From Eledone cirrhosa (lineage: Eukaryota): a DNA stretch of 64,000 nt. Each line of letters starts with the position of its first letter. Position 1 is the stretch's first letter. The notes beneath the pieces were generated by a model, which was not told the DNA's origin, did no database searches, and saw nothing but the letters and a program-made list of their open reading frames with translations. The stretch spans positions 105,276,001 to 105,340,000 of the forward strand of contig OZ024743.1 of assembly GCA_964016885.1 (NCBI GenBank), written 5' to 3'. Below, piece by piece: positions 12,662-61,365 of this stretch. The translations under genes were made by a program, and so were the position numbers.

Positions 12662-12794
12662 CATAATATAAGATCAAAAGATGGTTCATCTTTTGATCTT
12701 ATATTATGCATACTCCAGTCCCACAAACTGTAGAGTGCTTCTTATCCGATATCTGCATTGCTTTATTGTACTACAATAAAACTCACCTCCTACA
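12662..12794 (+). repeat. Perfect 22-bp hairpin plus ~85-nt tail inserted in (TA)n
   Basis: CATAATATAAGATCAAAAGATG-GTT-CATCTTTTGATCTTATATTATG at 12662-12708. Confidence 0.85.
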
Positions 12795-12809
12795 TATATA
12801 TACATATGT

Positions 12810-13545
12810 ATATAAATTGAAATAAAATGAAAACGAAATTTCATTTCTCACTCTTAGTATGGCACTTACTTAAATGTAAGTATGCATGTATACGTACATA
12901 CATATATGTATACAGACGTACAGTAGCATGCATATATATACATATATATATATATATATATATATATATACATATATATACATATGCATACAGGTACACA
13001 TACATATATGCACGTATCAATTTAGCGGACGCTTATTATAACGCCGCTTTGTTCGTTTGTAAACAAACTGAACAGCCTGAATTTATGTCATACGGTGTTA
13101 AGGCAACCACGTCACCTTTTTGTTCAACACTGACACAGGAACGATTTAACTCACTCAATATGCAAATTAGGCTGCTCAGCCGTTAATTTTCATAAGGAAA
13201 GTATATACTTTCGAACGTTCAACTATCTGGCAGATGGGTAAACGGTGCTGATGATAGCTAACAAGCTTGAAACTAGTACATCGTTCCTGTGTCAGTGTTG
13301 AACAAAAAGGTGACGTGGTTGCCTTAACACCGTATGGCCTAAATTGAGGCTGTTCAGTTTGTTTACAAACGAACAAAGCGGCGTTATAATAAGCGTCCGC
13401 TAAACTGATACGTGCATATATGTATGTGTACCTGTATGCATATGTATATATATGTATATATATATATATATATATGTATATATATTCATGCTACTGTACG
13501 TCTGTATACATATATGTATGTACGTATACATGCATAATTACATAT
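12810..13545. mobile_element. Fold-back HHR-containing non-coding element (same family as the 35136-35960 tandem)
   Basis: Inverted arms ~12885-13145 and 13280-13535. The spacer and HHR match 35338-35490. Confidence 0.85.
13243..13283 (+). ncRNA. Type I hammerhead ribozyme, canonical core
   Basis: cggtg-CTGATGA-t agc taacaa gct t-GAAA-cta-GTA-catcg. 5-bp stem I, palindromic minimal stem III (ACTAGT), predicted cleavage after A13278. Confidence 0.88.
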
Positions 13546-13575
13546 ATATATATATATATTAAAATAACAGATTAA

Positions 13576-13626
13576 AGTTTAAGCAAAGAATCGCTGCTTT
13601 CACCCTTAACGGGATCTTCTGAAACT
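13576..13626 (-). ncRNA. HHR-like motif, U4A core variant (mirror copy)
   Basis: Reverse complement of 17964-18014. Confidence 0.65.
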
Positions 13627-15145
13627 AACAAATTCAATCTGTGAACGCAGAAGTGAATATTTCAAAAAACGTTGCAATCGGAAGAAGACAGGAAGACGAT
13701 ACTTTGGTTCGTGGAAACGTTCCCTGGCAAAGAACGAGAAAAAACGAATATAATACGTCATTATTTGGAGCGGTAAAAAACAATTACACGAAAAGACAAA
13801 ACCACGTTTATGGTATAAAAGAAGTCGTAGACTAATATTCTATTAGGTGGTTCATAGGGACGTTCTCTGGCAATGAACGGAAAAACCGAAGATAATACGT
13901 CATATGTGGAGCGGGGAGAACAATTGCACGCAAAGACAAAATACGTAAATGGTATAACTGAAGTCGTAGAATAAAATTCTAACTAGGAAACCGAATGACT
14001 CTCAGCTTCAGAGTTAAGAATAAAGAAAATAAAATACAGATGTAAATGAAATTAAATAAATACATACACACATCCATATACTTACATACACAAGCATACG
14101 TGAAAACACTCGCCATAGGTATACAAATACACGCACGTACACACACAAAAAAAGAAAAAAACGCACACACATACAGAACCCACGCAAGGCCTGTACCCGC
14201 ACGCATACGAATGTATACACCAAATACACATAAAAATATATATAAAAAAAAATATATATATATATATATGTGTGTGCGTGTATATATATAATCAAATAAA
14301 CGTATATAAATAAATAAATACGTATATAACAAGCGCACACACATACCTACATATAAATACACTTATGTTCGGAGATGACGTCAACCAAAACACGAAGTAC
14401 ACATATACACACACACTACATACGTACGAACCCGCATACTCACACAGATGCAAAACTCACGTATACACATAATCAAAAGCATATGTACCAGAAAAAATAA
14501 TATATACGCCATAACATATACAATCAAATATACGTACGAGAAAGTATACGTACCTTCACAAAACATACAGGTAATATATACTTAGCTATACAAATAAGTA
14601 ATGGTATAAACATAACATATACTTAGCTACCACATCAACACGTAAAATATCCGCGTATAGTTCGTACTATACGTTAGGGCATAATGTGGGGCTGTAATTC
14701 AGGAAAGCTTTGTGCAATTTATGTTTACAAGCCGAAATTGCCTCAGATTTTTCGTTTAAGATGTGGTCTTTGGCGTAGAGTATTCCCAGGGCCTAAGCGT
14801 CACAGAGGTCACATGGTCTTTTATTTCCGTTATACGATCTAGCCCTAGCTAGGATCTCCCAGTGTAACTTATATTGGGTCTGGTTTTCTTTTAGACTCCA
14901 GATATAAGCTGAAAGTGACGTTATATTCCTTCTTAAAGGTAAAGAAAAGAATGGGTATGCATGTAAAGGCGCTGCTTGAATCTATTGGCGGTTAACCCTA
15001 TGTAGGCCTTACTGGACGTGGGTGTTTCAATGTTACTAGAGAGGCATTTCCTGGATAGGGGGCAGTCAATCCGATTCCTACAATTACGGTTAGTACTAAC
15101 TACAGGGTTGCACGTGTTCCTACGGCTAGGTAATTTACCTAAATT

Positions 15146-58845: not shown

Positions 58846-59002
58846 TAATGGACATGGTTATACGGAACAGGAAGGACAACCGTACGAACGCGCATGCGCA
58901 GATCACTTCACACAGGCAATACTAAAATGCGTGCGAGAAATGTAAGGGAGATAACTGCGAAAGTCCGAAAAGTTGATAAGAACATTAGGATGTTGTTGTA
59001 AT

Positions 59003-59500
59003 TCAATCCGGAGCTTTGTAGTTATGTAAGAGGTGTTTCGAGACGTGTGGACAACGTGTGAAGAATTCATTCCTCGTGTTTAGGCAATCACTATTGCATA
59101 ATCTCTTTAGAATATTTATTCGTTCATCAATACATAGTCCACACGACGGATTGCCCCTTGCGTATCGCTTGGACTTAGTGATGGCTTTCGATTGAATGCA
59201 GTAGTCTATACTTGAGTCCTTGAGGGACCATACGTGGCTCGCGAGTTTCGTGGATGAACGTCTGTCCAGGTACCTAAAGGTCGACTGGTGTTTCAGGAAG
59301 CGTTCCTTAAATCGGCTCTCCGCCATATCCACATAGGATTTGACCTCCTGTGGTTGATTTGGTCGGTTGGAAGTGACCACAGCTTCATAAACTACAGCGG
59401 GTGTGTTGCATTGCTGTTGAAGGGGACAAGCTTCGGGCTTACGGCAAGAGCACGCTGGTGGGGTGTTGCTCTTAGGGCTGTTGGTGATGTTGGCCTTCAA
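59003..59500 (-). pseudogene. PLE GIY-YIG endonuclease domain with CxCx5Cx5C linker
   Basis: 165-aa frame carrying the motifs listed for the element. Confidence 0.88.
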
Positions 59501-60554
59501 GTTCTTCGCGCAGGTGTATCCTAGTTTTACTTTGTGTCGGTTAAAGATGGAGCGGTATTTATGACCTATGAGAAAGTGTCTATCTAAGACGGCTAGAAAT
59601 CTTTTTACCTACATTGGTTTTAACGTTGAGTGATAAGGGAGGAGAAAACCAAATAGTTTGTCTATTGTTACGCTTTCTTTTCTTATTGCTGTTGTTGATA
59701 GTGGGAGAGTAAGTGATAGGTTGTGAGAAGCCACTGATAGCTAACGCTGTGTTACAGTAGGGTGCTGCCCTGTCAAAGATAGCCTTATTAGAGGAGAGAT
59801 TTGAGGTTCTAGTACTGATATTATTTACGAAGTTTCTAAAAACAATGGGAGGGTGGCATGAGTCCTTGTGAATGTAATTGAGTTTTTCGTTTAGCTTATG
59901 GAAGGGTATGTAGGTGTGCGTGCGAAGGTCTAAATTAATGTCTAAGAAATCTACGCTAGAGCGGTTGGTAGCTACTGTTATCCTAAGTCCTAACTCATTG
60001 AAGGTAGAAGCTAAGTCTTTTTTAAAACCGCTCGAAGTCGTGACAACTTTTATGGCTCGATAAGGTCAGTCCATCGTCGCGGTATATTCCCGTGTGGAGG
60101 TCCGGGTATGTAACACGTAATATGTTTAAAATAAATAGGCCAACCAAGTCGCATACGTCAGCACTGTCAAACGATACCATGGAGACGTCCAATAGGTCTG
60201 AAGTTGTTGACTTCTTTGCCCAGGCTACTCCGTCGTTGAAGAGGAGGGTTTTCCGGCAGTGAGCGATGATTTCCCTGTCTAAACCATCGACGTTAGTGTA
60301 GGTGGTAGCAAAGTCAAACGCTTTGTTTAACATGGTCTCTGGGACGGGTAAAAATCAACAATGTCAAACTGTGTGAACTTCGCTTTTGGGGATTTGAAGG
60401 AGTTAAACCACTTAATTACGGAGTCGCTGTTCTCCCACTGGGACAGTTTGGACTTGGTCCTAATGGTCTTAACTATGTTTCTAAGTATGGCCTTACTGAC
60501 TAGTCCCATATCTGTGCGTGCCGGGTTTATAGGTCTACATGTGGGGTTAGAAGT

Positions 60555-60990
60555 GAAAAGGATTTCACACAGGTCAAACGGGAGGAAGTGAGAGAGGGGG
60601 AGAAACAGAGAGTTAGTGAGTGAAAGGGTGAGGAAGAGGCCAGCTGAGAGAGAGAGAGTGACTGGCTATAACTCTGGTTGGTGCGAACAATAACTGAAAA
60701 AAAAGTTATTGGGACACGTAAATTAGGGTGAAGCGAGCGAGACATATAAACAAACGGAGATGGTAATGCAACGGAAATATAGGAAGAGAAGAGACAAGTC
60801 CGTGATATCTATGAACTTAAGCTCGGTGAAATCATAGATGAGAGGTAAAGACCATCCGACCTGGGTGAGATGTGAGCGAGAAAAGAATTTCACACAGGTC
60901 AAACGGGAGGAAGTGAGAGAGGGGGAGAAGCAGAGAGTGAGTGAGTGAAAGTGTGAGGAAGAGGCTAGCTGAGAGAGCGTGACTGGCAGA
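60555..60990. repeat. ~325-bp-spaced direct repeat of a ~105-bp purine-rich unit
   Basis: ATTTCACACAGGTCAAACGGGAGGAAGTGAGAGAGGGGGAGAA at ~60562 and ~60887. Confidence 0.8.
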
Positions 60991-61160
60991 GAGGGTAACA
61001 AGAAGGTGAAAGATACAGAGAAAGGGGAAGCAGTAAGAAAGAAACAGACAGGTCGCAGCAGAAGAAAAAATATAAATATATGAAAAATGGCATGCTGCGC
61101 GGTTACACATGCGTTACATACGAATAAAATTAGTCCTTCATCAGTGATCTTCCAATCTTA

Positions 61161-61365
61161 TAGGGAAAGAGTCAGGACCCCGACGGCTGAGCTCCGGCCG
61201 TTTCGACAGCTAGATCCGAACACATTTCGTATCTAGCTGTCGAAACGGCCTGAGGTCAGCTGTCGGGATCCTGACTCTTTCCCTGTTACCCACTCTACTA
61301 CCCTACGTATTGAGTACTCTTGTATGTTATGGTACACCTGGTATCTTACCATACCCTCTTTGTTT
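61161..61365 (+). mobile_element. Fold-back insert (60-bp arms plus tail), same family as 34264-34454; contains the 3' half of an HHR
   Basis: 61161-61220 mirrors 61226-61285. GTC-GAAA-cggc..gctg-TC. Shared tail. Confidence 0.87.

Follow-up and report, generated by a model that had tools for sequence, protein, structure and literature searches.

The Hydra clade of Penelope-like elements (PLEs), as described in the main text of Craig et al. (2021; PMC8557442), comprises elements with a C-terminal endonuclease (EN+) that carry RW[K/R] and DKT motifs, a CxCX5C linker, CxxC and CxH, together with a short open reading frame (ORF), a hammerhead ribozyme in the pseudo-long terminal repeat (pLTR) and insertion into (TA)n. 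All of these features are common to elements of a 64-kb stretch of Eledone cirrhosa DNA (contig OZ024743.1; hereafter the window), animal-type DNA rich in microsatellites, which contains nine fold-back inserts, each an inverted repeat with one arm longer than the other. We are confident that these are inverted insertions of 5'-truncated PLE copies. Their outer ends probably lie just upstream of two conserved motifs in the untranslated leader, which we interpret from sequence as two reverse transcriptase (RT) start sites; each insert is best read as a head-to-head pair of PLE copies. While the architecture, the hammerheads and the clade were already known, the twin leader motif appears to be new: the main text of PMC8557442 names no leader motif and presents the formation of tails and inverted repeats in PLEs as an open problem.

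An inverted pLTR with a tail on one side has been described by Arkhipova et al. (2013; PMC3846280) and Craig et al. (2021), and the inserts have the same form, a 5'-truncated inverted copy beside the main copy. In contrast to those published elements, most of the present inserts lack an ORF and are short stubs (20-150 nt) whose loops do not exceed 12 nt. According to Cervera and De la Pena (2014; PMC4209133), metazoan PLEs carry minimal type I hammerheads with a palindromic stem III, an extra base after A9 and a U3-A8 variant, in many families per genome, and truncated PLEs give rise to dual minimal hammerheads about 100-700 bp apart on opposite strands. All of these are likewise seen in the window, whereas the U4A core of one family (A) and the longer stems II or III of several motifs differ from that description. 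For PAc Poseidon, the only PLE system studied in vitro, Frangieh et al. (2024; PMC11167929) report that both target strands are nicked and extended, by a predicted dimer, and that the tail is set by a pair of internal sites, 3' of the hammerhead, at which the RT starts, with the hammerhead itself dispensable. The PAc start sites are placed in the ORF, in an AC-rich stem-loop, with a binding motif given as undefined, whereas the Hydra-type ends described here fall in the untranslated leader, each just before a repeated GCTC/GAGCACT motif. Finally, non-long-terminal-repeat (non-LTR) retrozymes, as presented in PMC7229834 and by Li et al. (bioRxiv 10.64898/2026.07.22.740005), resemble a further window family (B), a non-coding tandem of about 428 nt with one hammerhead per unit; unlike them, family B also inserts in the inverted-plus-tail form.

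Self-BLAST of the window, after removal of matches with more than 72% purine/pyrimidine alternation, recovered all eight asymmetric inserts that a previous sequence-only reading had listed, together with a ninth:

12662..12794, plus strand: insert 1, with 22-nt arms, a 3-nt loop, an 87-nt tail and no hammerhead; tail hairpin ACTC 12712 / GAGTGCT 12733.
12810..13541: insert 2, family B, with arms 12871-13148 and 13277-13546, a 128-nt loop and a 65-nt tail on the left; plus-strand hammerhead at 13241..13285 with a CUGAUGA core, C3 at 13248, U-U at 10.1/11.1 and a palindromic stem III.
13560..18125: insert 3, family A (Hydra-clade PLE), with left arm 13560-16117 (minus strand; broken RT and GIY-YIG) and right arm 16118-18125 (plus strand; 95-nt tail); CAGAAGA-core hammerheads at 13621 (minus) and 17969 (plus); leader hairpin 1, GCTC 18041 / GAGC 18083.
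29692..30050: insert 4, with 146-nt arms, a 6-nt loop and a 63-nt tail on the left, in which ACTC is present and its partner damaged; hammerheads at 29858 (minus) and 29945 (plus) with the U3-A8 core UUGAAAA.
34264..34454: insert 5, with 52-nt arms, a 9-nt loop and an 82-nt tail; hairpin ACTC 34382 / GAGT 34402; hammerhead 3' half (GAAA, stem III, GUC).
41445..41662: insert 6, family A, with both 3' ends (short and long) as in insert 3; centre within the hammerhead, the right arm beginning 3 nt before C3 41599 and the left arm at stem II.
41932..42014: ninth fold-back, with 29-nt arms, an 18-nt extension, GAGCACT at the centre and no hammerhead.
57464..57965: insert 7, with an 11-nt loop at 57835-57845, a hammerhead with a long stem II, CUGAUGA beginning both arms and a 76-nt tail with an ACTC/GAGT hairpin.
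61162..61363: insert 8, belonging with insert 5 to one family, with 59-nt arms, a 5-nt loop, a 79-nt tail and a half hammerhead; hairpin ACTC 61292 / GAGT 61312.

Arm identity ranges from 86 to 97% (91% for 13559-18125). One outer arm is the longer in 9/9, with outer extensions of 87, 65, 95, 63, 82, 95, 76 and 79 nt in inserts 1 to 8 and one of 18 nt in the fold-back at 41932. Seven have loops no longer than 12 nt; the exceptions are insert 2 (128 nt) and insert 3 (636 nt). As the sequence-only reading had proposed, the inserts sit in or beside TA tracts: TA-rich DNA flanks all nine on at least one side, as expected of Hydra-clade insertion into (TA)n, with single flanks excepted at 57965, which abuts (TC)n, and at 61162, which meets non-repeat DNA. 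Target-site duplications are indistinguishable inside these (TA)n flanks. Roughly 45 nt at 41397-41440 fail to align with family A, and the start of insert 6 was corrected to 41445. The loop of hairpin 1 in family A itself holds a (TA)n run (18050-18080), expanded to 52 nt at 43843-43894 in a sister copy that begins at 43701, so some TA tracts belong to the element and not to the target. Inserts 3 and 6 have common outer ends and centres about 1.9 kb and 56 nt, respectively, from the short end; the ends of inserts 5 and 8 agree within 2 nt and their centres differ. In inserts 2, 3 and 6 the arm without the tail extends further 5' than the tailed arm. A rule that it always does so was rejected, since the arms are nested in a relative from another host (L038) and, by eye, probably also in inserts 5, 7 and 8.

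The twin motif was defined in relatives of these elements. A scan with six related proteins (P0001-P0006) gave 79 Hydra-type loci from the best 80 of 310, and among the 47 loci with at least 150 nt downstream of the hammerhead, GCTC-N8..16-GAGCACT lies between the hammerhead and the ATG in 34 (background 6%). The leaders carry exactly two GAG(C/T)-type sites in 33 of 43 cases, one in 7, three in 2 and none in 1; twin sites are 53-82 nt apart (median 63). GAGC is paired with an upstream GCTC at 54 of 63 distinct sites (background 4%), the spacer between half-sites being 8-40 nt. We then compared the motif with 3' insertion ends in 38 downstream pLTRs, counting an end as scorable where a same-family leader of at least 44 nt and at least 90% identity was available together with flank beyond it, which left 11 rows representing 10 distinct insertions. 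Nine of the 10 end at -4 to +6 of a GCTC start (binomial p ~2e-6), seven of them at -3/-4; three precede copy 1 and six are at copy 2. The end of L042 also falls at -4, on a 33-nt match, among the rows without a close leader. L038 displays the whole architecture, with an ORF-bearing arm that runs to copy 2 and an inverted arm that stops 9 nt before copy 1. Mapping of 5' ends in the 79 relatives yielded few real junctions because most contigs break within the pLTR.

The same arrangement is found in the window. Copy 1 lies in the tails of inserts 1, 3, 5, 6, 7 and 8 and of a single-arm PLE of family C, and the short ends of those six inserts stop 4-9 nt before hairpin 1 (insert 7 has an additional ACTC at 15). 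Through the hairpin in its tail, insert 1, which has no hammerhead, joins the group. In the family A copy at 43701, copy 2 occupies 43948-43966, 26 nt upstream of the ATG. Tail length is the spacing of the two motifs, 63-95 nt here compared with the 30-40 bp that the main text of PMC8557442 gives for PLEs in general. Families 1, 5/8, 7 and C pair ACTC with GAGT where family A pairs GCTC with GAGC, which reads as a compensatory change; since the motif is invariant within the relatives, the case for pairing rests mainly on these window families. Predicted pairing averages 0.73 over 16 stems, against 0.48 with shuffled flanks. It is likely that the motif folds as two small RNA hairpins and sets two RT start sites.

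How two start sites could produce a fold-back is best accommodated, by a slight balance, by twin priming by a dimeric enzyme. A dimeric RT-endonuclease would bind both hairpins of one leader RNA, one per subunit, and nick both strands of (TA)n. One cDNA, primed before hairpin 2, would become the arm with the tail; the other, primed before hairpin 1, would become the arm without it; and the cDNA 3' ends would anneal over a few bases and be filled in. Such priming would account for the asymmetry of 9/9 fold-backs and for the offset arms of inserts 2, 3 and 6, in which a single cDNA folding back would be insufficient because the arm without the tail lies further 5'. That Hydra PLEs carry a duplicated RNA recognition hairpin, one per subunit, each setting a start site a few bases upstream, is a conjecture to which we give slightly less than even weight. 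The hammerhead, 20-300 nt upstream of the start sites, would then be mostly a passenger, although some stops might, somewhat less probably still, come from the stems of the ribozyme or from an RNA 5' end close by.

Several observations weigh against twin priming from paired hairpins. The small loops of seven of nine inserts are compatible also with fold-back priming, and one shared RNA template would need strand displacement. The stem is only 4 bp and invariant in relatives, and could be a DNA or protein-recognition motif; the stem of hairpin 2 at 43701 is predicted to be unpaired, and this one diverged copy is all that ties the long end to hairpin 2 within the window. Family B has a weak ACTT/AAGT form and insert 4 a damaged one, and no leader motif was found in families D and E. 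Among the relatives, the 3' end of L022 is off by 27 nt and those of L017/L018, scored against an 87% reference, by 24 nt; 27 of the 38 pLTR rows went unscored because of a contig end (7), an 87% reference only (2) or no close leader (18). TA microhomology moreover blurs apparent ends.

If twin priming holds, the motif would be the first defined cis-element to explain the PLE tail and inverted insertion, and would also serve to mobilize retrozymes and stubs that lack an ORF. With insertion ends 3-9 nt in front of it, this short, clade-wide motif allows a direct mutational test, and it can mark element boundaries when Hydra elements are annotated, among them stubs likely to be labelled miniature inverted-repeat transposable elements (MITEs) by repeat finders. 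Neither the twin motif nor its tie to both 3' ends was found in the main text of PMC8557442 (no matches for GAGC, hairpin or stem-loop) or in the literature searched, a scope that excluded supplements, Repbase and most subscription papers; the supplements of PMC8557442 and PMC11167929 may show it. Two papers were listed in one of these searches, and the match that was checked proved to be a primer. The family A end pattern had no matching stretches in the metagenome contigs searched, and no relatives were found in the viral contigs searched.

Two further arrangements were noted among the relatives. In L021, an inverted arm (124-244) consists of 120 nt of EN-coding sequence, short of the pLTR, joined to a main copy (245-461) that starts 6 nt past the hammerhead cleavage site; the arrangement looks like internal priming. 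At L029 (2272-2567) and L042 (2379-2542), two different Hydra elements stand tail to tail in the same (TA)n, resembling the adjacent inserts 1-3.

The twin motif could instead act in DNA. In resolving a hairpin duplex formed from fold-back cDNA, the GIY-YIG endonuclease would cut one arm just 5' of motif 1 and the other just 5' of motif 2, an explanation that we consider unlikely but the main competitor. It agrees with Craig et al. (PMC8557442), whose main text attributes the tail to EN-mediated resolution, and with the Drosophila virilis EN, which needed the tail for recognition (as cited in PMC11167929). The small loops are as it would predict, and so is a tail on either arm, as seen in the offset arms of inserts 2, 3 and 6 and the nested arms of L038. 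A spacer of 8-40 nt between half-sites is, however, poorly suited to a duplex site, and the tail ends of PAc coincide with RT start sites (PMC11167929).

The sequence-only reading took the inserts to be ribozyme-anchored, with hammerhead cleavage or folding fixing the symmetry centre, and in that strong form we regard the claim as improbable. That reading placed the motif at or near the symmetry centre of the short inserts; it lies within the centre region in five of the seven inserts concerned (12810, 34264, 41397, 57464 and 61161), 40-46 nt away in 29692 and 1.9-2.5 kb away in 13559. With the motif span assumed for inserts 5 and 8, which form one family, contact at five of seven centres has a permutation p of 0.04 when arm lengths are swapped, 0.14 when only arms long enough to reach the motif are allowed, and 0.001-0.014 under constant-hazard nulls. 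Individual ends also approach the ribozyme: the left arm of insert 2 starts at +1/+2 from the cleavage site (predicted after 13278), the stub at 41193 at +5 and L021 at +6, and ends fall 0-12 nt before C3 in inserts 6 and 7, L051 and a read joint at 13633. Yet only one arm begins at a cleavage site, other ends lie at -40, -99 and -165 nt or kilobases away, in five inserts only 20-130 nt separate the motif from the fixed end, and two fold-backs have no motif at all. Of the five centres in contact with the motif, four are 5' of the cleavage site, which implies uncut templates, and hammerhead mutants of PAc insert normally in vitro (PMC11167929).

Reads bear on the same question. Depth was summed on run X1; it is not taken as copy number, and it partly reflects divergence; runs X4 and X6 (234 and 225 records) were too noisy for testing a depth step. 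From the 3' end, family A depth runs 1.57, 1.11, 0.69, 0.45, 0.31 and 0.18 M, then about 0.1 M over the RT. The largest step spans the motif (48% after masked-base correction), as anchoring would predict, but depth goes on falling over the next 400 nt in the upstream direction, by 31-44% in each 99-nt bin, and in family B no drop is seen on passing upstream of the hammerhead (1.28 M over the motif, 1.08 M beyond it). Strand-switch joints, biased by restriction-site-associated DNA (RAD) reads and listed for 15 of 220, place one end 17-31 nt before C3 in four of the six listed for family B, whereas none of the 12 ends of those six lies inside the motif. A modest excess of centres at the motif is thus possible, while fixed anchoring appears not to be borne out.

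That the inserts are MITEs of TA-targeting DNA transposons, as inverted arms in TA tracts might suggest, is highly improbable, because their ends are unequal in 9/9, their centres vary within a family (as between inserts 3 and 6, whose ends agree), fixed terminal inverted repeats or interiors are lacking, arms extend into RT/GIY-YIG sequence, depth declines from the 3' end, and single-arm and tandem copies occur at 43701, 58710, 35131, 42800 and 41193. Shared 3' ends, differing centres, such single-arm and tandem copies and the depth gradient together indicate mirror halves built at insertion, so the earlier view of PLE or retrozyme integration products was upheld. Equally remote is an origin of the fold-backs in post-insertion break repair or in assembly: TA tracts are fragile and the window junctions are not bridged among the reads listed, but each family has its own point at which the shorter arm stops, shared by separate inserts and by relatives, the two arms are 3-14% divergent, and the same form recurs in L038 and L051 from other hosts. 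Copies other than the fold-backs are as follows:

11610-11754, plus strand: decayed sister of family E.
25466..25609, minus strand: single-arm pLTR stub of family E, with a minimal hammerhead bearing A6G (C3 25577) and no leader motif found.
35131..35957, plus strand: tandem array of family B units repeating about every 428 nt, with hammerheads at C3 35432 and 35861, 429 nt apart.
41193..41353, plus strand: family D single-arm stub, beginning 5 nt past the cleavage site of the 42936 hammerhead.
42800..43194, plus strand: single-arm copy of family D, with a hammerhead at C3 42936, a tail of about 55 nt and an approximate left boundary.
43701..45080, plus strand: family A sister copy, with pLTR, CAGAUGA hammerhead at 43749, hairpin 2 (GCTC 43948 / GAGCACT 43960), ATG at 43986 and a broken ORF start.
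58710..60557, minus strand: family C Hydra-clade PLE, a single arm 5'-truncated in the RT, with GIY-YIG, hammerhead C3 58841 and a hairpin (ACTC 58769 / GAGT 58753, minus strand).

Families A and C appear to match the Hydra-clade definition by motifs and tblastn. Both encode an RT followed by a C-terminal GIY-YIG in one ORF (tblastn and motif map), the ORFs being broken; tblastn against four full-length relatives gave a best E of 1e-91, and YRDDG of the RT, WYNPP, CxCX5C, CxxC, CxH, RWR and DKT are all seen (RWR 44095, DKT 44301, CxCX5C 59452, CxxC 59143/16804, CxH 59053/14729; at 16511, W replaces the last C of CxCX5C). Pfam assigned no family to the four PLE pieces, and the Neptune clade, our first candidate, was dropped after comparison with the Hydra definition in PMC8557442. 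Other PLE hallmarks present are 5' truncation, inverted and tandem pLTRs and a tail on one end. The families had been called unrelated; this is so at the nucleotide level, but at least five share the Hydra leader motif, which is the sole link to a Hydra ORF for the ORF-less families 1, 5/8 and 7, a partial one for insert 4 and family B, and absent as a link for D and E. Family B units are tandem, non-coding and retrozyme-like, with one type I hammerhead each, and the array has the long 3' end of insert 2. Its second unit lacks about 200 internal nt: just past the hammerhead, at a short shared sequence (35921-35924), it passes straight to the 40 nt that precede the long 3' end. Approximately 39,000 RAD reads of run X21 align rightwards from 13340-13342, with unrelated AT-rich sequence leftwards and deletions of 6 nt and 1 nt at 13387 and 13396; this sharp boundary, inside the family B unit and beside two small palindromes, may mark a subfamily or a separate element.

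Hammerheads were sought with a relaxed type I scan (score at least 8), a strict scan and reading by eye. The relaxed scan gave 10 matches, compared with a shuffle mean of 0.52 (maximum 2; 25 local shuffles); nine fall in these repeats and the tenth, at 62651, is probably chance. The hammerhead at C3 42936 came from the strict scan, and reading by eye added 25577 (minus), 41599 (plus), 57834 (minus)/57846 (plus), together with the half motifs of inserts 5 and 8. Full or half motifs are present in seven of the eight inserts first listed, as claimed, with none in 12662-12794, and the six additional motifs of the sequence-only reading all exist, 25546 bearing A6G and 43744 U4A. A type I hammerhead in the pLTR, a feature of PLEs, is present here; insert 1 and 41932, which are truncated short, lack one. 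The supposed dense reservoir is real in number (about 14 full and 4 half motifs from 8 sequence families in 64 kb) but overstated as a reservoir. Inside the fold-backs, pairing between the arms is predicted to prevail over folding of the ribozyme, abolishing one or more of its stems in insert 2 (stem I), insert 4 and insert 7, and most such motifs would therefore be silent in read-through RNA.

Cores are canonical in families B, C and D and in insert 7, and the U3-A8 of insert 4 is a known natural variant (PMC4209133). Family A has A at position 4 in 4/4 copies (13615-13621 on the minus strand, 17969-17975, 41599-41605 and 43749-43755), with CAGAAGA or CAGAUGA and a stem III of 5-7 bp. U4A, fixed here, is absent from all 71 hammerhead matches in the Hydra relatives (55 of 79 loci), and none of the 40 read differences listed falls at position 13620. 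It may be a natural variant or a dead but retained motif. Rfam reported no hammerhead in two sub-regions, nor among the 150 of 342 window matches listed; its microRNA matches were rejected as microsatellite or fold-back sequence below gathering scores.

The window contains other repeats. Dispersed 180-nt repeats, up to 97% alike and some in tandem, occur at 6097-6473, 31181-31845, 46218-46646, 53750-53973, 56050-56257 and 57581-57766, and the left arm of insert 7 holds one copy (~57591-57764). An unbroken 1152-aa ORF at 464-3922 (plus strand) with endonuclease, RT and zf-RVT domains corresponds to ORF2 of a long interspersed nuclear element, with decayed relatives at 20298-21000, 38190-41168 and 45424-46149. 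A long low-complexity ORF region spans 36200-37900, and a 629-aa frame at 22223-24112 (minus strand), with a PIF1 helicase and STPR repeats, is likely a Helitron remnant.

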